Shown in pieces: positions 9,573 to 18,607 of a stretch of 64,000 bases of DNA; the stretch's first letter is position 1, and the number at the start of each line of letters is the position of its first letter. The stretch spans positions 128,001 through 192,000 of the forward strand of contig CAVRJG010000039.1 of NCBI GenBank assembly GCA_963721455.1, given 5' to 3'. The stretch is from an uncultured Methanosarcinaceae archaeon. Its GTDB lineage: Archaea > Halobacteriota > Methanosarcinia > Methanosarcinales > Methanosarcinaceae. A program made the position numbers and the translations under genes. The notes under the pieces are model-generated. The model searched no databases. It was not told the DNA's origin and saw only the letters and a list, made by a program, of their open reading frames with translations.

Positions 9573-10700
9573 TCAAAACCGTTTTTTTATTGCATCCCAG
9601 AGCATTTCCATTTTTTCAAATGGTGTATTCAGAGGGATTTCACATCCTGTAGTCAGGATAAAACCTTTTTTGGAAGCTGCGTTGAGGCAGCTTTTGACCT
9701 CGTGCTCAATCTCAACCATGGAACCGACAAGAGGCGCATCCGGAATTATGTTTCCCATAAGGCAGATGCCGGCATCGGAAAATTCTTTAAATTCGTTAAA
9801 ACAGTGTCGAGAGCTGCACCCGATATTTTTATGGTTGTGAAGCTTCTTGCATTCGACTCCGTATTTATTTTCGAGAGCCCGGACATTGCCAAAGGCGAAA
9901 TTCAGCGCATTGGGCTTGAGTTTTAATTCCAGGTCATAGAAGGCCTGGGCTGCACAGTTGTGGGAAATTACATATCCCCCTCGGGCTTTTATGTGCTCAT
10001 ATAACTCCTTTGTATAGGGCAGCATGAATTCCTCTGCCATCTGCCGGCTGAAAAGGTCGCCTGTATTTTCGCCGTTTTCAACGAAAATGCCGTCAACTCC
10101 TGCCTCAAGCAAGACATCGGCAAAATAGGTGCAGCTTTCAGTAAGTTTTTCCAGCAGGGAGTGAAAATTATCTCTGTCCTTCAGCATGTCAATGCAGAGC
10201 CTGCTCCCTCCCATAACCTGGGATGCAAGCATTAGAGGAGACATAGCCGCCCCGAGGATGAAGGTTTCATCCCCTATTTCCTTTTTAAGGATTTCAACCG
10301 AGCCTGCAACACTTTTTACCCTCTCAGAACGCTCGATATCTCCGGGATTTATCTGCTCGTGCTCAGCCGCAGATTTCAAGGCATATTTTGCAACTGCAGG
10401 ATATGCATTTTCCTTGATACTCACCTTTGTTCCCAGGGCTTCAGCTTCGACAAGCAGGCAGCCCCAGGGAGACATCACATTGTCGTGGTGGTACATCTCC
10501 CTGGCAAGAATCTGAGCTTTTGCAATACCTTCTGCAGAACAATAGACATCTTTGAGACTTGCGCCCATCCTTTCCAGAACTGCATGGCCGGCTCCGAACC
10601 AAAGATAACCGTAGGGGACCCGGTCAACATCCTTTTGCTCAAGCGCGTTAATGAAACGTTCCCTTGAGGTCATTTCCGCTTCCATATTAGATATCTCCAT
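9573..10700 (-). CDS. Uroporphyrinogen decarboxylase / MtaA-CmuA-family methyltransferase
   Basis: MTSRERF, VEAEALG, HNC (H-x-C Zn motif), LMGNI, GCEIPLNTP. Confidence 0.85.
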   Translation of the reverse strand: MEISNMEAEMTSRERFINALEQKDVDRVPYGYLWFGAGHAVLERMGASLKDVYCSAEGIAKAQILAREMYHHDNVMSPWGCLLVEAEALGTKVSIKENAYPAVAKYALKSAAEHEQINPGDIERSERVKSVAGSVEILKKEIGDETFILGAAMSPLMLASQVMGGSRLCIDMLKDRDNFHSLLEKLTESCTYFADVLLEAGVDGIFVENGENTGDLFSRQMAEEFMLPYTKELYEHIKARGGYVISHNCAAQAFYDLELKLKPNALNFAFGNVRALENKYGVECKKLHNHKNIGCSSRHCFNEFKEFSDAGICLMGNIIPDAPLVGSMVEIEHEVKSCLNAASKKGFILTTGCEIPLNTPFEKMEMLWDAIKKRF

Positions 10701-11139
10701 TTTTAAGCTTCCAGAGATTAATATAAAAGTAGTTGTATAAATACTGGCCAGAATAAAGGCTGAAAAAATTTCATTTTATTCTAAAAACTGCTCAAGCTAA
10801 AGTAAAATAATGTAAATAAAAAAGATGTAAGGGAAGAAAATTCTTCAACTACCCACTGTAACTCTGGAGAGGAATACTACGATCCTGCATTATCTGAATT
10901 CACCAGGCATCAGATAGCGGCTTTTGCACAAAGGCCGATACATGATAATAGGCTTGTACGGCTAAATAATGCAGGCGTGCTTGCATCAGACGAGTGAAAG
11001 TACCTCGTTAGGAATGTAGACTTTGCCTGTTATCGGAGCGTAGACAACTATGCCTTTGAGCTCATGAGTTGAGCCATCCTTGATAAAGCGTGCTAGAAGG
11101 ATTAAAAAAGTAAAATACAGTAGACGCACATCAAAAGAA

Positions 11140-11303
11140 GAGTAAGAAAAGTCCGGAAGCTCTATGTTCCTTTTACCGTAGCCCCCGATACAGTCGCTCT
11201 GAAAATACACTCCCCCAAGCGTATTAATTCAGAAAAGGACAAAGGGCTTCCGAGCAATTCTTCACTTACTATTCATACCTTACTCACTCGCTCTGTCCAC
11301 TCC
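11140..11303 (-). ncRNA. Putative structured sRNA, copy 1 (Y-shaped, two G-rich loops)
   Basis: Stem CGGAAGC..CCTTTT/AAAAGG..GCTTCCG encloses hairpins AATACGCT-TGGGGG-AGTGTATT and ACTGTA-TCGGGGGC-TACGGT; T-rich 3' end; ends approximate. Confidence 0.7.
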
Positions 11304-11329
11304 AAATTACAATATAGAATTATCCCTGT

Positions 11330-11350
11330 AATTATTTTAAATTAATTATA
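11330..11350 (-). promoter_or_regulatory. Shared TATA-like block of the three putative sRNAs (also 11986-12006 and 12497-12517)
   Basis: Identical 21-mer AATTATTTTAAATTAATTATA, 20-27 nt upstream of a shared GGAG start in all three copies. Confidence 0.65.
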
Positions 11351-11429
11351 TCAAAAATTAGTTTCGAACGAAAAATGCTTTCGCATAAAAAGTTTTAAAA
11401 CCGAAATATAATTTCATACTAAATCAATT

Positions 11430-11469
11430 TTTAGCGTTACGCTGGACTTATTTAGCGTTACGCTGGACT
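11430..11469. repeat. 19-bp direct repeat x2 with a palindromic core
   Basis: TTTAGCGTTACGCTGGACT at 11430-11448 and 11451-11469. Confidence 0.85.
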
Positions 11470-11699
11470 CAACGGAGCTTAAAAAAGAGCTACGGTAAAG
11501 AGGTTGATAGGGGATTAGTTTCAGCTTGCGATATGGTTGAAACTTTCAATAGGAATATATAAGGACGATTTCAGTTCTTCGAAGCCTTAACGAGACTTAG
11601 AAAAGAACTAAACAACATGACTCAAAAATAAAATTTGAAACCATAAAGCGAAAACATAACAAAAAAATAGCCTATTAGAAATCACAGCAAAAGAGTTTA

Positions 11700-11761
11700 G
11701 CAGGAAATAAAAAGAATAAGAAGAAGATATGCAGGAAATAAAAAGAATAAGAAGAAGATAT
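11700..11761. repeat. 31-bp tandem duplication
   Basis: GCAGGAAATAAAAAGAATAAGAAGAAGATAT x2. Confidence 0.85.
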
Positions 11762-11789
11762 AAAGGTTAGAAGAAATGAAGGTTACTAA

Positions 11790-11966
11790 AAGATGGTAAA
11801 GACAGTATGAATATACCCAGAGGCACTGTATCCTTTGACTTTATCCCCCAATAAAGCCTCTCCGAAATTATGCTCCCCCAAGCATATTGGTCCGAAGAAG
11901 GATCAGCGACCCCCAGAAAATTCTCTTATTTATTGTGGTAAATACCCCATCTAACTTCCCAACTCC
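11790..11966 (-). ncRNA. Putative structured sRNA, copy 2
   Basis: Stem GGGGGTCGCTGATCCTT/AAGGATACAGTGCCTCT; hairpins TATGCT-TGGGGG-AGCATA and GGCTTTAT-TGGGGG-ATAAAGTC. Confidence 0.7.
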
Positions 11967-12299
11967 AGAATATACTAATAACATAAATTATTTTAAATTA
12001 ATTATACAAAATATTCTATTTAAGCAAAAAATAATTCGGCGTAAAAAATTTCAATGCCACCATAGAGTCAAATTCAGAGCCTGCGTTTTAGCTGAGAAAA
12101 AAAGATTTTATACCAGGCCCGGAGTAAAACAGAAGTTTCGTCGCAGATAAAAAGAATTCTGTGGCAGATAACAAATATGAGATAAATAGCAGAACCACGC
12201 AAATAAATCATGGAATAAGAACAGAAAAACAGTATCTTTTTTCAAAAAATCCGAAGATAATAAATAAGAATAAAAAGGAAATCATTTAAAAACATGTGA

Positions 12300-12477
12300 A
12301 AACTCAGTAAGAAGAAGCCCGAGAGCAGTTTAGTCCCTTTGCCGTATCCCCCAACACAGCCGCTCCAACGATATGTTCCCATCCAAATATCGTAAAGCAA
12401 GGATCAGGTAGCTCCCGGGCAATTCTGTCACAACCCGCTACTTTGCTATTCAATCATACCCTGTCTCTTCCAGCTCC
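12300..12477 (-). ncRNA. Putative structured sRNA, copy 3
   Basis: Stem GCCCGGGAGC/GCTCTCGGGC; hairpins ACGATAT..GGATGGG..ATATCGT and GCTGTGT-TGGGGG-ATACGGC. Confidence 0.7.
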
Positions 12478-12695
12478 AGAATATAGTAAGAGAATAAATT
12501 ATTTTAAATTAATTATACAAAAAATTGCCTACAAACAAAAAATAGTTCCATGCAAAATATTTCAAAGCCAGAAAAGAACTGTAGGTAGAAATACATGCAG
12601 AAGTCAAATCTGACCGGGAAATTAAGACAAAAAGTCCCGGGCTGGCACAAAAATTAAGTACATGAATTAATCTATAAGTAAAAGCCTTAATATGC

Positions 12696-12768
12696 AGTCC
12701 TGTAGGGTAGTGGTCAATCCTTCGGGCCTTTGGAGCCCGGGACAGCGGTTCGAATCCGCTCAGGACTA
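12696..12768 (+). tRNA. tRNA-Gln(TTG)
   Basis: AGTCCTG...CAGGACTA acceptor stem, anticodon arm CGGGC-CT TTG GA-GCCCG, GGTTCGAATCC. Confidence 0.95.
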
Positions 12769-13389
12769 TAAAAATATTTTTAATAATTCTAAGTAATTGA
12801 TGTTTTTATTACTGTTTTTCAAACTCTTTTATTTACGCCTATTCACAAAGTGTTAGCTGAAGCAAAAAAATGTTTTTGACGTAAAATTAATCCAACTTAA
12901 TACCAATAATGCGCAAGATAGAGTTTGAGCCTTTTGATAGTTGGCCTATGATAGAATTACCAATTTTTTTGATTACTTCCTGGACTGGTTTATGGGAATC
13001 TCATGGCTTCATAGATTGCTTCCCTTTTGCTCCAGGTTCATGGTTTTTAACTCATTTTAAGCTCTTTCAAACTCTGGTTTCGTCGTTGAGTCATTGATTT
13101 ATTATTAGATCTGTAAATGCTATTACTTTTTGGGAAGGGGTTGAAATCACTTTCGAAATGAAGTTTTTACAGTTTTTTCTCCAGGACCAGATGCAGTAAC
13201 CCCTGCGGTAGCGGTAGAAAATTCAAACGTTGTCACGACCATCAAAAAGGAGGACTGGAAGGGAGAAATCGGAAGTAGAGTATAAACAGGGACAGGACTC
13301 TGCCACGACATATAGATCGGTTTTAGGAAATAAATGAGAAAGTGGGAAAATTGGAAGGTAAGATAAAGACACCTACCTCTCAACAATCA

Positions 13390-13617
13390 TCAGCGACCCC
13401 GATCGTCACTGTCACAATTGCCCCGATCTTTCCAGTTACAACCGCCACCATCTTTACTATGTCCATCTCCACCAGATCCATCTCCACCAGATCCATCTCC
13501 ACCAGGTCCATCTCCACCATCAACGACTCTTGCTGATGCAGTTGTCAGAGATACTACAAAAAAGACAACCAGTAAAATGACCAGCGTCTTTTTTATTATA
13601 GATGTTTGTTCCCCCAT
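13390..13617 (-). CDS. Secreted Gly/Asp-rich peptide, cassette A
   Basis: Signal peptide KKTLVILLVVFFVVSLTTASA, GGDG(P/S) repeats, tail GGGCNWKDRGNCD; RBS-like GGGGTG upstream. Confidence 0.7.
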   Translation of the reverse strand: MGEQTSIIKKTLVILLVVFFVVSLTTASARVVDGGDGPGGDGSGGDGSGGDGHSKDGGGCNWKDRGNCDSDDRGR

Positions 13618-14101
13618 TTGTCTACACCCCTAACTTTTGTTAAAATTGATACAATTCAAAACTATTGTTTAATAACACTTTTCGCAGGCAGAAGCCTTTA
13701 GTAAATATTATTTAACCAATTATATTATTTAATCGATTATATTATTTCACCAATTAGTCATCCAGATTTATTTCTTGAAGAGTATATTGGTCATTCTTTC
13801 TTGATTTTATGTCTGATATATTATGTGCCTATGAAAGCGATTTCAAATTGTACCATTACGAGATTATCATTGATGGAATATAATATTAATTGGATTATGA
13901 ATACGAAACCAATAAATATTAGTCTGAAATAATCGTGTCAAATTGCCGTAGATATACTTCAGTAATGATATTTACCACAATTAATTCTCATTTTTCATAT
14001 AACTTTACAAAAATATCACTCAATTGCCAAGAATTGCAATAGACTCAAAGTTCATATCGACTTAGATAATATAAAGTTCAGTAAATCGGGAAATATATAT
14101 T

Positions 14102-14231
14102 GAGCCTATCCCAAAAGCCACTTTATTCTTAATCATTGGGAATTTTCAGAATTTTTTTCATGATCTTGAGCTTGATTGATTATTCGAAATACAAGGCCCA
14201 AGAAGCAAATTTCAAGTTTTGGGATGAACTC
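14102..14231. mobile_element. 130-bp MITE-like element, family 1
   Basis: TIRs GAGCCTATCCCAAAA / TTTTGGGATGAACTC; inverted homologue at 62586-62715. Confidence 0.7.
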
Positions 14232-14583
14232 TATACCTGTAAATTCTATTACTTTTAGGGAAGGGGTTGAGACCACTTTCGAAAAAGAGATTTCACAGTT
14301 TTTTTCTCCAGGACCGGACGCAATAACCCCTGCCCCTGAGGTAGCGGTCGAAAATTCAAACGCTGTCACAGCCATCGTAAAGGAGGACCGGAAGAGAGAA
14401 ATCAGAAGTAAAGACCACACCGGGTTCAGCTACGGCCTATAGATCGATTTTATGAAAGAAATAAGTAGGAAAAAGTAGGAAATTAGTAGGAAAGCGAGAA
14501 AGTAGGATGAAGAAATCTGTGTTATGAAAGGAATAAAGTAGGAAAGTGAGAAAGTAGGATGAAGACATCCTACCTCTCAACAA

Positions 14584-14987
14584 TTACCACCAGTCACATC
14601 TGTCCCAGCAGCCCCAATCGTTCAAGCCACAGCCACAGCCGCCATAGCCGCCCCAGTTGCCCAGGCCCCAGCCGCCATAGCCGCCCCAGTAGCCGCCCCA
14701 GCCGCCATAGCCACCACGGTGTCCTCCACCGTATCCACCACGGTGTCCTTTAAATCCTCCACCGTATCCACCGCGGTGTCTCCTCCACCGTATCCACCTT
14801 GGTGTGATCCACCGCCACCGTATCCACCGTGTGATCCACCGCCACCGTGTCCCATCTGATGTCCACCGCCACCGCCACGGCCACCGCCACGGCCACCGCC
14901 AGGAGCGGCGCTTACTGCCGCAGCTGTCACAGATACTACAAAACAGACAACTAGTAAAATAGCCAGTGTCTTTCTAAGTTTCCCCAT
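14584..14987 (-). pseudogene. Secreted Gly/Tyr/Trp/Cys-rich peptide, cassette B, frameshifted near 14780
   Basis: Signal MGKLRKTLAILLVVCFVVSVTAAAVSA; after a 1-nt shift the frame continues HRGGYGGG..GGYWGG..CGCGLNDWGCWDRCDWW* (TAA 14584-14586). Confidence 0.7.
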
Positions 14988-15595
14988 TTGTCTACACTCC
15001 TAACTTTTGTTCAAATTGATACAATTCAAAGTGTTTTATAATCACTTTTCACAGGCAGATACATTGAGTAAAGATTATTTCACCAATTAGTCATTCAGAT
15101 TTATTTTTTGAAGAATTCCTTGAAGAAAATGTTATTGATACCTTCTATCTTCACTTATGTCCGATGTATATGCCTATGAAAGCGATTTCAAATTGTATCA
15201 ATATAAGATAATAATTCAAAGAATATAATATATACCGAATTATAGATAAGGAAATAATATATACTGAATTATACATCAGAACCAATAAATATGATTGTGA
15301 CCCATTAGCTGGCTGAGATTTTATTTTTTGAGTGTAGGTTATTCACCTGCACCTGTTTTCTAAGCTTATTTGCTTACGAGAAATTGAAACATATAATGTG
15401 AAAGAATGAGACTCGGAAAGCAAGTAGGGGAATATACTAGGGAAAAAATAGCAACTTATTATTAATGGACCGCCAATAAATATTAAAATCTGAATAATCA
15501 TGTAATCTGTTTTATGAAAGGAATAAAGTAGGAAAGCGAGAAATTAGGATGAAGAAATCTGTTTTATGAAAGGAATAAAATAGGGAAGTGAGAAA

Positions 15596-15615
15596 GTAGG
15601 ATGAAGACATCCTAC
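15596..15615 (-). terminator. 3' hairpin plus T-rich tract after cassette C (homologues 13357-13377, 14554-14573, 17439-17458)
   Basis: GTAGGATG-TCTT-CATCCTAC about 10 nt after the stop codon, followed by pyrimidine tracts. Confidence 0.6.
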
Positions 15616-15625
15616 CTCTCAACAA

Positions 15626-15916
15626 TCAACACCAGTTACAGCCCAAGTTACAGCCACAACTGCGGTCCCAGCAACCACTGCCACAGCCGCCCCAGCCGCC
15701 CCAGCCCCAGTTGCCGCCCCAGCCGCCCCAGTTGCCGCCCCAGCCGCCCCAGTTGCCGCCCCAGCCGCCACCGTGTCCGCCGTGCCGCCGCCAGCCGCCG
15801 CCGCCCCAGCCGCCACCGCCTCCATGTCCGCCGCGTGCGTCTACTGCCGTAACTGTCAATGACATTACAAACAAAACAACTAGCAAAATAGCCAGTGTCT
15901 TTTTCAGTCTACCCAT
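15626..15916 (-). CDS. Secreted Gly/Trp/Cys-rich peptide, cassette C (intact)
   Basis: MGRLKKTLAILLVVLFVMSLTVTAVDA-RGGHGGGGGWGG..GGNWGGW repeats..CGSGCWDRSCGCNLGCNWC*; RBS GGAGTG. Confidence 0.8.
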   Translation of the reverse strand: MGRLKKTLAILLVVLFVMSLTVTAVDARGGHGGGGGWGGGGWRRHGGHGGGWGGNWGGWGGNWGGWGGNWGWGGWGGCGSGCWDRSCGCNLGCNWC

Positions 15917-16470
15917 ATATCTACACTCCCTATTTTTGTTCAAATTGATACAATTCAAAACTATTGTTTTATAATCACTTTTCGCAGTTCACAGGCAGAT
16001 GCATTGAGTAGATATAATTTCACCAATTAGTCATCCATATTTACTTATTGAAGAATTTCTTGAAGGGAACATTATTTCAAGAGAATGCTATTGGTACATT
16101 CTATCTCCACTCTATGTCCGATGTATATGCCTGTGAAAGCGATTTCAAATTGTACCACTATAGAATCATCATTTATGGAATATAATATAAACAGAATTAT
16201 AAATAAGAAACCAATAAATATCAAAGTCTGAAATAATCCTGTCATTTTCCCGCAGATAGAGCTCAGTAATGAGATTTATCACAATCAATTCTCACTTTTT
16301 ACATAACTCCACAAAAATACCACTTGCGTACCCAAAATTGCAAAGCTCAAAGTTCATATCGACTTAAATAGTATAAAACTGGGTAAATCGGAAAATATTT
16401 ATTAATAATGTGTAGGTTTTACGAAGCCTTGACTCTTTTTCATTAAGCAGGTGATTTATCTCAATTCCAT

Positions 16471-16598
16471 AGGACTTACGCAGTTGGACTGAAAAACCAG
16501 TAGCTTGAGACTTCAAGTGATTCAAATCATAATATAAATCAAAATATATATGACAGATCTGCTCGTGTACTATGTTACCCCTCAGGTGCGTAAGCCCT
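16471..16598. mobile_element. MITE-like element, family 2
   Basis: TIRs AGGACTTACGCA / TGCGTAAGCCCT; second copy 18324-18436; related ends at 61530-61636. Confidence 0.65.
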
Positions 16599-17261
16599 AC
16601 GAATCAAAAACCTATTTCCTGAAGGCAGGATACAAAAGATCGTTTCTGACGAAGATAAAGCAATCATTGGAGCTGTAAAGAGTGTCTTCCCTGAAGTGGC
16701 TTATTCCTTTTGTGTATTTCACCAATTAAAAAACGTTAGCAAGAGGTATAGTGATGAATTCAACTCTATCACAAATATTCCAGATAATGATGAGCTTGTG
16801 TACAATGAGATGTCAATTAATACGCTCTGATACGGTCATCAGTGCTGTTGTATGTTTTCAAAAGATACGAGAATTGGATTCTAATCTGGAACTTTCAAAA
16901 GCGTCTCATAAAGCGATTTCTTATGCAAAAGAGATTTTCACGAAAAATGTAAGCTTTTTGAAAAAAGGGTTTACACCTGAGACAGATAAAATACAATGGA
17001 ACAGATATTTTCTTTGATAAGTGATGTTGTAGACAAAGCAAGATCATTCAAAACTGATAGTGGTCTAACTAATTTTTGTTACAATTTGTTTACTTATTTA
17101 ACAAACGGTGTTTCCACACTGGAAAATGGAGATGATTCTCACCCTTAATGAGGGTAAGATTCCAATATGGATAAAGGTAAAAGGAAAAAAGTAAACCTTC
17201 AATCTAAACTGAAATTCCTATAGCGGTAGCTAATGGAAATTTCCACAAAAAATAGGGTGCC
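16599..17261 (+). pseudogene. 3' half of a degraded DDE transposase (IS256/Mutator-like CxxH motif)
   Basis: IVSDEDKAIIGAVKSVFPEVAYSFCVFHQLKN, then frameshifts near 16810, 16990 and 17098 and an in-frame stop. Confidence 0.75.
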
Positions 17262-17468
17262 TAGTAAAAAATTGTATAAGTTCTTGCATGATTGAATCAA
17301 CTTTTCCAAAATGAGTAGATTGGTTCACTCCAAATTATGATGAAATTTCATGATTTTTTCGAAATTGAAGAAGAACCAGAAAAATAAAAAAGACTCGTAG
17401 ATATGTATTATGAAATAAATAAATGGAAAAGTAAGAAAGTAGGATGAAGACACCCTACCTCTCAAAAA

Positions 17469-17745
17469 TCACCACCATGTGCCACAACAGCCACAACGGT
17501 GGTCCCAGCAATCACAGCCGCAGCTGCGCCAGCCGCCCCAGTTGCCGCCCCAGCCCCAGTTGCCGCCCCAGTGGCCGCCCCAGCCGCCACCGTGACCCCA
17601 GCCGCCGCCGCCGTGTTCCACCGCCGCCGCCGCCGTGTTTCCAGCCGCCGCCACCATGTGGGCGGGCGTCTACTGCCGCAACTGTCAATGACATTACAAA
17701 CATGACAGCTAGTAAAATAGCCAGTGTCTTTTTCAGTTTAACCAT
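17469..17745 (-). pseudogene. Secreted Gly/Trp/His/Cys-rich peptide, cassette D, frameshifted near 17618
   Basis: MVKLKKTLAILLAVMFVMSLTVAAVDA-RPHGGGGWKHGGGG, shift, HGGGGWGHGGGWGGHWGGNW..CGCDCWDHRCGCCGTWW*. Confidence 0.7.
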
Positions 17746-18323
17746 ATATATCTACACTCCCAACTTTTGTTCAAATTGATACAATTCAAAGCTATTGTTT
17801 GATAATCACTTTTCGCAGGCAGATGCATTGAGTAACAGGCAGATACATTGAGTAAATATTATTTCACCAATTAGTCATCAATTAGTCGTCCAGATTTATT
17901 TCTTGAAGAGAATGTTATTGGTACATTCTGTTTTCACTTTATGCCCGATGCATTATGTGCCTATGAAAGCGATTTCAAACTGTATCACTTTGGTATCACT
18001 TTGATACACTTTGATATCATCATTCATCGAATATAATATCAACAGAATTATAAATAAGAAACTAATAAATATTGAGGTCTGAAATAATCTTGTCATTTTC
18101 CCGCAGATATAGCTCAGTAATGAGATTTATCACAATCAATTCTCACTTTTTACATAACTCCACAAAAATACCACTTGCTTACCCAAAATTGCAATGAGCT
18201 CAAAGTTCATATCGACTTGAATAGTATAAAACTGGATAAATCGGAAAATATATATTAGTAATGTGTTGTATTTAAGAAGCCCTGACTCTTTTTCATTAAG
18301 CAGGTTATTTATCTCAATTCCAT

Positions 18324-18436
18324 AGGACTACACAGTTGGACTGAAAAACCAGTAGTTCGAGACTTCAAGTGATCCAAATCATAATATATGACAGATCTGC
18401 TCGTGTTCTGTGTTGCTCCTCAGGTGCGTAAGCCCT
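18324..18436. mobile_element. MITE-like element, family 2, second copy
   Basis: Near-identical to 16471-16598 with a short internal deletion. Confidence 0.65.
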
Positions 18437-18607
18437 GCCAGGGACCTAAATCGTCAACATCCCAATTACAGCCTGAACTAATCGTTCAATCACCAATCAA
18501 TAGCAGTCACAGCCGTTCCAGCCGTGCCCGAGGAAGAAACCGCTCAGGACTATAATCTAATTTTTACATAATCCAGTTGAAATTGCCTATTGGTTTAAAA
18601 AAGGAAT

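Follow-up and report, generated by a model that had tools for sequence, protein, structure and literature searches.

CsrB, RsmY and RsmZ carry many short, G-containing motifs in their hairpin loops and titrate the protein CsrA, and sibling or multicopy bacterial small RNAs (sRNAs) are represented by LhrC1-5 of Listeria, Qrr and the csRNAs; LhrC, as well as RoxS/RsaE and sX13, uses C-rich motifs to pair with G-rich ribosome-binding sites. In archaea, where Methanosarcina is the main genetic model among methanogens, the mechanism is known for only a handful of sRNAs. The M. mazei sRNA162 is described (PMC3510493) as a 191-nt RNA composed of SL1-SL2, a single-stranded linker of 39 nt that pairs with a ribosome-binding site, and SL3; it adjoins an ArsR gene, is antisense to the 5' UTR of a neighbour and has one paralogue in M. 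mazei, its BLAST homologues being confined to M. acetivorans and M. barkeri. sRNA154 and sRNA41 of M. mazei are conserved in the genus, are described as carrying anti-ribosome-binding-site loops and are discussed as single sRNAs (PMC5867862); the sRNA154 promoter carries the NrpR operator GGTA-N6-TACC (PMC3177094). Finally, a ribosome-associated, tRNA-derived fragment has been described in Haloferax volcanii (PMC4152357).

Here, we describe a tandem array of three RNA genes in a 64-kb stretch of DNA (hereafter, the window) and the non-coding family to which they belong, which is read from the minus strand and has a fold under selection. An initial annotation of the window had proposed that the units form an sRNA family in which control and scaffold are shared and the 5' arms differ, a proposal that the covariation among homologues and the Rfam searches reported below both support.

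Results

The three units, with the shared block, the GGAG and the T-rich end that the initial annotation had assigned to each, are all present on the minus strand of the window at 11140-12517. Each one combines a 21-nt A/T block, identical in all three, with a purine-rich 5' arm, a scaffold in the shape of a Y and a pyrimidine-rich tail that is followed by a U run, and the three RNAs are about 165-180 nt long. For unit C, the promoter region (12497..12590, minus strand) comprises the TATA-like 21-nt block at 12497-12517 and ~70 nt of conserved upstream sequence, and the RNA (12299..12477, minus strand; 5'-arm subtype III) has its predicted start at the GGAG at 12477; its scaffold spans 12310-12427, with the G5 loop of hairpin 2 at 12348-12352, the GGAUGGG loop of hairpin 1 at ~12378-12380 and the U run at 12299-12302. 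The promoter region of unit B (11986..12080, minus strand) likewise includes the block, at 11986-12006, and conserved upstream sequence, followed by an RNA of subtype II (11788..11966, minus strand) that is predicted to start at the GGAG at 11966 and has its scaffold at 11808-11925, G5 loops at 11845-11849 and 11875-11879, G runs in the arm at 11945-11948 and 11958-11960, and a U run at 11788-11791. Unit A, of subtype I, has its promoter region at 11330..11420 (minus strand; block at 11330-11350, plus conserved upstream sequence) and its RNA at 11133..11310 (minus strand), with the scaffold at 11144-11262, G5 loops at 11182-11186 and 11212-11216, and the first U run at 11133-11136. The GGAG that lies 3' of its block is at 11303, and transcription may start at ~11310 instead if the spacing from the block matches that of units B and C. 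Starts and ends are predicted in this manner for all units, and the U runs presumably mark their terminators. A repeat search recovered the same organization as two three-copy families, one of 108 nt over the promoter and 5' end (67-80% identity; spacing of 656 and 511) and one of 47 nt over both G-loop hairpins.

The 21-nt block (TATAATTAATTTAAAATAATT) is exact in all three units, always on the minus strand. Across the source genome, all 10 matches to the 21-mer with up to two mismatches are located upstream of family copies, and the reversed-pattern control gave zero matches. The part of the promoter upstream of the block is also conserved, both among the three units and when 72 distinct family promoters are stacked without gaps; these promoters are among the most conserved in the genome. 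Position and A/T content suggest that the region of the block is a promoter, and the best explanation is that every family gene has its own nearly invariant, long A/T-rich promoter and is independently transcribed. The shared promoter points, in turn, to some candidate regulator.

When folded individually, the units form a closing stem and two hairpins with energies of -52.5 (A), -51.4 (B) and -53.2 kcal/mol (C), corresponding to z-scores of -2.49, -2.77 and -1.99, respectively, against dinucleotide shuffles. The layout of the RNA is, from 5' to 3', a purine-rich arm, a conserved AAGAAU, a closing stem of 9-12 bp, a junction with two hairpins, the loops of which expose YGGGGG, a conserved CUUCUUCUUAC tail, and the U run. 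The hairpin-2 stem sequences quoted in the initial annotation are correct as written, and its observation that the stems remain paired while their sequences differ holds well beyond the array. Among 92 distinct copies, 95.3% of the cells are paired and double changes occur in 26 of the 29 pairs, values reached by 0 of 500 shuffles and to be compared with 31.5-50.4% pairing in slid controls. Further, a MAFFT/RNAalifold alignment that was not fitted to the model yielded 21 pairs, 19 of them with compensatory changes, and agrees with the model fold. Covariation support is strong and on par with that of curated RNA families. The AAGAA/UUCUU extension of the closing stem is nearly invariant on both sides and, hence, uninformative on pairing. 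RNAalifold also proposes a helix between the 5' arm and the 3' tail (P0), for subtype III only; we rejected this helix, cognate arms and tails giving -9.5 kcal/mol vs. -9.4 for non-cognate ones and -10.0 for shuffled arms (permutation p ~0.3).

The minus strand, which the initial annotation had taken as the working strand, scores far higher with the covariance model R1 (117, 118.3 and 89.1 bits for units A, B and C) than the plus strand (23.6 bits for unit A, 10.8 bits for unit C, and no match at E<=10 for unit B). Nor is there an ORF common to the units, as had also been noted: the longest ATG ORF has a median of 8 aa over 76 full-length members, and no peptide recurs among these members beyond near-identical copies. 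The units, but none of the spacers, are covered by short contigs from the RNA libraries of two studies; these contigs represent sediment communities rather than the source strain and carry no information on strand, ends or level, and parts of the window devoid of them are not necessarily silent. The contigs span 12300-12466 (a whole contig of 167 nt) and 12331-12471 for unit C, 11740-11948 and 11776-11943 for unit B, and only 11159-11212 for unit A.

Base conservation is highest in the loops, not in the arms, with the G5 of hairpin 2 being at least 90% conserved. Runs of four or more Gs average 2.8 per RNA vs. 0.74 in shuffles, and runs of three or more about 5 vs. 2.8, with zero runs of four or more Cs in the family RNAs; the purine-rich 5' arms (A 36%, G 33%) contribute one to three of the G runs. 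The hairpin-2 loop of subtype I is UCGGGGGC, which lacks GGA, and the subtype-II motif is UUGGGGGA. GGAGG, the better complement of the anti-Shine-Dalgarno (SD) sequence, is found in a loop in 0 of 89 copies, which argues for recognition of the G run as such rather than for mimicry of the SD consensus. The 3' end of the 16S rRNA is GGAUCACCUCCU, and 29 of the 37 GGGGG occurrences upstream of long ORFs fall inside the SD window; a duplex between a loop and the 16S end has about -8.4 kcal/mol vs. -17.3 for the full SD, i.e., it is half as stable. An alternative drawing places the G runs in GGGG tetraloops with a Y-G closing pair, an arrangement that would hinder pairing, and a G-quadruplex is not part of the minimum-energy fold even when permitted.

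A covariance model built from the copies of the source genome identified 12 family copies in that genome and between 1 and 20 matches in each congeneric genome (24/24 positive). In a family-wide sample, 19/19 Methanosarcina genomes and 6/6 genomes of a sister genus were positive, and the model matched none of 95 genomes that represent 14 other Methanosarcinaceae genera and none of 16 from other families of the order. The best explanation for this distribution is that the family is specific to Methanosarcina and one sister genus. The 5' arms differ between units, as the initial annotation had it, but they are not freely variable; rather, they form subtypes, each conserved across species. These subtypes are orthologous across species, and the order III-II-I recurs in another species; in more distant species, the alignable portion corresponds to the RNA and its promoter, not the spacers. 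We also considered a viral origin and rejected it: the hairpin pattern occurs in nine viral contigs, all of which the covariance model leaves unmatched.

The array is flanked by a divergent tRNA-Gln(UUG) gene at 12696..12768 (plus strand; ARAGORN and Rfam) and, downstream, by a gene for an MtaA/CmuA-like methyltransferase of the URO-D superfamily at 9573..10700 (minus strand; Pfam URO-D, 1.1e-67), which MtaA-type NCBIfam models match below their cut-offs. Of 14 loci examined, 10 have an identical tRNA-Gln next to the array and 5 an orthologue of the MtaA-like gene, most loci being too short to show the latter. The location of the array between these two genes is syntenic across species, including the sister genus. 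The MtaA-like gene serves as a syntenic landmark, and its linkage to the RNAs is positional. No recurrent protein gene was found beside the copies among 34 neighbouring ORFs of at least 95 aa (10 of them around the window array), a size at which a shorter regulator could escape. The genes encountered in these neighbourhoods include sensor kinases, GatE, aldehyde dehydrogenase, geranylgeranyl reductase and transposases.

The possibility, raised in the initial annotation, that the units belong to an existing Rfam family was not borne out. For the whole window, Rfam 15 gave nothing but three tRNAs at gathering thresholds; for 10900-12800, even at E<=10, the matches were the tRNA and two weak ones overlapping it; and sixteen further family-bearing loci again gave tRNAs only. 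The RNA family is previously uncatalogued, and no description of it was found in the literature, the sRNA coordinate tables of M. mazei lying outside the search; single members may already be numbered as M. mazei sRNAs. Two other comparisons were also negative. The junction strand CUGAUCC differs from the hammerhead ribozyme core (CUGAUGA...GAAA), with no Rfam hammerhead match at E<=10, and the TROVE domain of the Y RNA/Ro60 system (PF05731) has zero matches in the source genome, the Deinococcus control being positive.

Discussion

How does the family compare with the described systems? Similar to CsrB, RsmY and RsmZ, it exposes a repeated G-containing motif in loops and presumably needs high expression; it differs from them in the motif (YGGGGG vs. 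A(N)GGA) and in having only two structured loops per RNA. The analogy to CsrB/RsmZ drawn in the initial annotation does not carry over, given that CsrA (PF02599) has zero matches in the 98.5%-complete source genome, with E. coli, B. subtilis and T. maritima positive as controls, and that the subtype-I loop lacks GGA as noted above. As with sibling sRNAs, of which the family is an example in kind and not by homology, there are several homologous stand-alone genes (two or more) per genome, some in tandem, each with its own promoter and predicted terminator, and short conserved loop motifs in otherwise divergent sequences. The differences are that the present family is archaeal, has up to 20 model matches per genome, and is built on a Y-shaped junction as opposed to a row of hairpins. 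Compared to LhrC, RoxS/RsaE and sX13, the polarity is reversed, since the loop motif here is a G run.

Among archaeal RNAs, the family shares with sRNA162 and sRNA171 its occurrence in Methanosarcina, an intergenic and non-coding nature, a similar length, and paralogues with conserved promoters. The initial annotation had called for a comparison with the sRNA162 family; going by the published description, the architecture (a Y-shaped scaffold here), the copy number (4-20 copies here, 12 in the source genome) and the ArsR locus do not fit, an ArsR domain being absent from the 34 neighbouring ORFs scanned (at least 95 aa; shorter ones could be missed). With sRNA154 and sRNA41, the family has in common its conservation in the genus and a pair of loops, functional in those RNAs. 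Yet their anti-ribosome-binding-site loops would complement the G loops of the family, and these two sRNAs could therefore be partners rather than relatives; the NrpR operator GGTA-N6-TACC has zero matches in the 64-kb window. The H. volcanii fragment is also a small non-coding RNA and a candidate actor on the small ribosomal subunit, although it is of unrelated origin and fold, and any ribosome role of the present family is putative.

We tentatively favor, as the best explanation, the hypothesis that the array consists of three paralogous sRNA genes that act in trans, via their invariant G-tract loops, on pyrimidine-rich RNA. Action in trans and by dosage would be expected from the many co-promoted copies, with the invariant loops as the active part of the RNA. 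These loops would most likely pair with CCUCC-like RNA, either the 16S rRNA 3' end or the anti-ribosome-binding-site loops of other sRNAs, such that the RNA would be a multivalent mimic of a ribosome-binding site, and the 5' arms would confer specificity on each paralogue. Genome-wide, the k-mer that would pair with the loop shows no enrichment (107 vs. 81 expected, the copies themselves included). The genome also has 79 C5-loop hairpins, six of which are family copies read on the reverse strand; the other hairpins form no family. A more specific and rather unlikely version is what would be the first archaeal decoy RNA family, in which the G tracts (two invariant G5 loops plus one to three arm runs) from up to 20 co-promoted genes would soak up either the CCUCC terminus of the 16S rRNA in free 30S subunits or anti-ribosome-binding-site sRNAs, and thereby set global translation or sRNA activity; or else, K+-dependent G-quadruplexes, formed between loops or between molecules, might switch the RNA on and off.

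Alternatively, the partner might be a protein, with the G runs of loops and arms serving as repeated sites that titrate a Methanosarcina RNA-binding protein in the way CsrB/RsmZ titrate CsrA. The excess of runs of three or more Gs over shuffles, the high gene dosage under one common promoter, and the searches that found no RNA partner (complement k-mer, arm complementarity and C5-loop hairpins) are all consistent with such a sponge, and a G5 that is kept as a run and never swapped for GGAGG would suit recognition by a protein. We consider this alternative possible but doubtful, since CsrA, TROVE/Ro60 and zf-CCHC were not found in the source genome, RRM_1 is found in 0/121 Methanosarcinaceae genomes, and no protein gene recurs beside the copies. 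If, on the other hand, the arms were the recognition element, the RNAs would be modular base-pairing regulators, in which the subtype-specific 5' arm finds the target and the Y-shaped scaffold provides stability or a handle for a common cofactor, similar to guide RNAs. The conservation of arm subtypes across species and the layout of a specific 5' part, constant 3' scaffold and terminator fit this idea, which nonetheless appears unlikely: the arms of the 12 source-genome copies contain no stretch of more than 15 nt that is complementary to another part of the genome, their purine-rich composition resembles that of ribosome-binding regions and makes pairing with start regions unlikely, no nuclease or cofactor gene was found beside the copies, and the loops, not the arms, hold the most conserved bases.

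Two further alternatives do without a trans-acting RNA. A SINE- or MITE-like explanation, in which the copies are repeats of a perhaps mobile DNA element that carries along its internal promoter and lacks a cellular function, is very improbable. Such an element could account for the 4-20 copies per genome, for the transposase genes or fragments within ~3 kb of 5 of the 12 copies (C12, C45, C60, C67a and C72), and for two decayed copies, one without the promoter (contig C72) and the other without hairpin 1 (C12). It does not account for an RNA fold maintained by compensatory changes, for an array whose synteny extends throughout the genus and into its sister genus, or for subtypes that are orthologous between species; terminal repeats were not noted in the copies, and none of the nine viral pattern matches is a family member. 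That the units are cis-acting leaders or riboswitches of the gene downstream is barely credible, even though unit A and the MtaA-like gene are co-oriented and 444 nt apart. Of the 12 copies, 7 (C53, C45, C67a, C67b, C60 and, in the window array, the two upstream units) have a nearest listed downstream ORF of opposite orientation and 5 have one of the same orientation, the units are arranged in tandem and each ends in a U run, and RNA contigs end near the U run of unit C.

A family that occurs in all Methanosarcina and sister-genus genomes searched, in 4-20 copies, with highly conserved promoters and strong covariation support, is likely to have a general role. If ribosomes, sRNAs or a protein are titrated by the G loops, the family would, as far as the literature searched reaches, be the first sponge-type RNA described in archaea. 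The covariance model is ready for use in annotation, and the loci are defined for deletion or knock-down. Finally, among the 13 loci tested that are titled as non-Methanosarcina (out of at least 80 listed), one matched the model; this match is on a 3.7-Mb chromosome titled 'metagenome' that is probably Methanosarcina.

Organization of the array and distribution of the family

Our results show that the three tandem units of the array belong to a structured sRNA family of Methanosarcina that is real and well supported and, apparently, uncatalogued. The units (A, B and C) lie on the minus strand between window positions 11100 and 12600, and each opens with ~100 nt of conserved A/T-rich sequence ending in a 21-nt block, TATAATTAATTTAAAATAATT, that is identical in the three (12517-12497 in unit C, 12006-11986 in unit B and 11350-11330 in unit A). 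The block is followed on its 3' side by ~20-27 nt, GGAG, a purine-rich arm of 40-60 nt, AAGAAU, a structured core of ~118 nt, a pyrimidine-rich tail (CUUCUUCUUAC in B-like units and unit C) and a U run (12302-12299, 11791-11788 and 11136-11133 in units C, B and A, respectively). A repeat search found two families of three copies each, one of 108 nt over the promoter part and one of 47 nt over the two hairpins, and the three units, folded singly, all form a closing stem that bears two hairpins. The common block, GGAG start and two-hairpin fold described in the initial annotation are present at the array; since the fold z-scores are only moderate (-2.0 to -2.8), the case for the fold rests on comparison among copies, not on energy.

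Allowing up to 2 mismatches, we found 10 instances of the block in the 3.94-Mb draft genome (reversed control, 0), with an RNA copy downstream in all ten cases. A covariance model, R1, built from an alignment of 10 copy cores of this genome (29 RNAalifold pairs, 12 with compensatory changes), gave 12 matches in the same genome (E values 4.7e-27 to 1.3e-9). Its scores in the window were far higher on the minus strand (117, 118.3 and 89.1 bits for units A, B and C) than on the plus strand (23.6 for A, 10.8 for C, none for B), which upholds the minus-strand reading. R1 was positive in all 24 other genomes of the genus, with 1-20 matches each, and, among 120 further family genomes sampled evenly, in 19/19 of the genus and 6/6 of one other genus. 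No match was obtained in 16 genomes representing five further families of the order or in the sample's 95 genomes of 14 other genera; this means not found in the genomes searched, some of which are incomplete, and with stricter filters in the larger searches. The original observation is confirmed, and its interpretation at the family level is supported.

Selection on the RNA fold

The fold was assessed on 99 R1 copies (92 distinct) from 75 loci, i.e., 28 from the search of 24 congeneric genomes, 10 from the own genome, and the 37 of 80 pattern-match loci that were assigned to Methanosarcina or its order or family. Standard pairs filled 95.3% of 2587 cells, and both partners had changed in 26 of the 29 pairs; in 500 column shuffles, none of the five observed measures was reached even once, and sliding the partners by 1-3 columns reduced pairing to 31.5-50.4%. 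Because this alignment had been fitted to R1, we also made a free one, running MAFFT on 89 of the 91 distinct N-free copies (the two omitted are short and lack hairpin 1) with structure prediction by RNAalifold. This recovered a 12-bp closing stem with one bulge, the base of hairpin 1, and hairpin 2, with compensatory changes in 19/21 pairs. The predicted covariation among homologues is thus found in both alignments, and the RNA fold is under selection.

Base conservation is highest at unpaired positions, namely AAGAAU ahead of the stem, the junction sequence CUGAUCC, UUGGGGGA of loop 1 and UGUAUUGGGGGAUACAGU around loop 2; at least 90% of copies keep the run of five Gs in the last of these. 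Subtype I copies carry UCGGGGGC as loop 2, so that either loop form could be a GGGG tetraloop with a closing Y-G pair. Among 76 full-length copies, runs of at least four Gs average 2.8 per RNA vs. 0.74 in shuffles and runs of at least five 1.66 vs. 0.20, while runs of four or more Cs occur in no RNA.

Transcription, 5' arms and relation to known RNAs

In one search of public runs, small shares of the stretch were found in each of three sediment metatranscriptomes belonging to two studies. RNA contigs cover unit C (12300-12466, the full length of a 167-nt contig, and 12331-12471), unit B (11740-11948 and 11776-11943) and unit A (11159-11212), and none in these metatranscriptomes lies over the spacers 11305-11731 and 11976-12280. 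Taken together, the unit C contigs have a 5' limit no more than 6 nt from the start predicted for this unit and a 3' limit inside its U run; the two unit B contigs extend 12-48 nt past the U run of unit B. The contigs, which give neither strand nor true ends, fit discrete RNAs of the predicted size, and the RNA may come from relatives of this strain. As the initial annotation held, no ORF is shared: the longest ATG ORF has a median of 8 aa in 76 copies, among which no peptide recurs.

The 5' arms, described earlier as variable, do differ between units; they are not random, sorting into subtypes I (unit A, ..GAGUGAGUAA.GGGUAUGAAUAG..), II (unit B, GGAGUUGGGAAGU...GGGGUAUCAUC..) and III (unit C, GGAGCUGGAAGAGA.AGGGUAUGA..GAAUAGCGAAGU..GCGGRUUGUGA), each carried by several species, and the order III-II-I recurs in another assembly. 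Stacking 72 distinct promoters places conservation between approximately -70 and +30 relative to the block. Only RNA and promoter are alignable to the window in distant species, the spacers being alignable in the closest relatives only.

Comparison with Rfam 15 returned only tRNAs, both at the locus (E<=10) and at 16 further loci (gathering thresholds), and hence no existing family. The RNAs are of the sibling/multicopy sRNA kind, differing from known examples in being archaeal, in their G-run loops and junction fold, and in giving as many as 20 model matches in one genome. Tests for membership among Y RNAs and hammerheads failed. In the suggested comparison with sRNA162, made on published accounts, the family fits neither sRNA162/171 nor sRNA154 or sRNA41 as these are described. 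No published description of the family was found in the literature searched; members may be listed as numbered candidates in the M. mazei RNA-seq paper of 2009, in the paper on sRNA154 or in supplementary tables, with the family unrecognised.

Possible mode of action

Given the many co-promoted copies, the invariant single-stranded G tracts on a covarying scaffold and the lack of a cis partner, the RNA would act in trans and in a dosage-dependent manner, with the loops as the active part. A cis-acting leader has little in its favor. The other own-genome copies lie in long intergenic regions, are not consistently oriented towards the adjacent genes, and have no gene beside them that recurs from copy to copy. 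A mobile element is likewise improbable, the transposase genes or fragments near 5 of the 12 own-genome copies being in its favor.

It is possible, if somewhat short of an even chance, that the loops serve as a decoy by pairing with an RNA partner, for which a CCUCC-type sequence is plausible. The 16S rRNA end is GGAUCACCUCCU, and in this genome GGGGG acts like a variant of the Shine-Dalgarno motif; of the 37 times it is found upstream of 1538 long ORFs, 29 fall at -16 to -7. Upstream of the same ORFs, the pentamers GGGGG, AGGGG and GGGGA cluster at the Shine-Dalgarno position nearly as strongly as GGAGG, and G-run ribosome-binding sites thus seem to be in regular use. A review (PMC5867862) describes two characterised M. 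mazei sRNAs with anti-ribosome-binding-site loops. Against such pairing, GGAGG never occurs in the loops of the MAFFT-aligned copies, a duplex with the 16S end is predicted to be weak, and neither a complementary RNA family nor enrichment of a complementary motif was found in the genome. A protein bound by the loops is an equally open partner; a sponge of this kind appears rather unlikely. CsrA, RRM, Ro60 and CCHC proteins, the four candidate families considered, are not encoded; the proposed analogy to CsrB/RsmZ did not hold, since the Csr/Rsm membership tests failed as well. Pairing directed by the 5' arms seems more doubtful still.

Flanking sequences and variant copies

The array is flanked by a divergently transcribed tRNA-Gln(UUG) gene and, on the other side, an MtaA/CmuA-like methyltransferase gene. 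Among 14 loci, sister genus included, most of which do not extend far enough to include both flanks, the identical tRNA-Gln was found at 10 and the methyltransferase gene at 5. Nearly 6 kb beyond the tRNA-Gln (12800-18600) hold only short ORFs (121 aa at most), with no Pfam or NCBIfam match in the four scanned and no Rfam or R1 match.

A 19-nt exact direct repeat, TTTAGCGTTACGCTGGACT, occurs twice, 21 nt apart (11430-11469), ~100-140 nt upstream of the unit A start; each copy contains an 11-nt palindrome, AGCGTAACGCT, the 16-nt core is found nowhere else in the genome, and the repeat may be a regulator binding site. Downstream of unit B lies a 31-nt exact tandem duplication (11700-11761), also unique in the genome.

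Two own-genome copies are variants: the one at C72:3083-3197 (locus L191) has no promoter block that can be recognised and follows an ORF at a distance of 99 nt, and the one at C12:12234-12310 (locus L193) lacks hairpin 1 and keeps the promoter and second G5 loop. In another Methanosarcina genome (locus L049), the tail motif is expanded, with CTTCTTATT in at least five tandem repeats directly after the scaffold of the copy at 1501-1618. Finally, a sister-genus locus (L128, 2181-4467) has five tandem copies between an MtaA-like gene and tRNA-Gln, two of which are identical in the 5' arm and nearly so in scaffold and tail; their arms have repeated GGGGAAAU motifs instead of GGGGUAUC.
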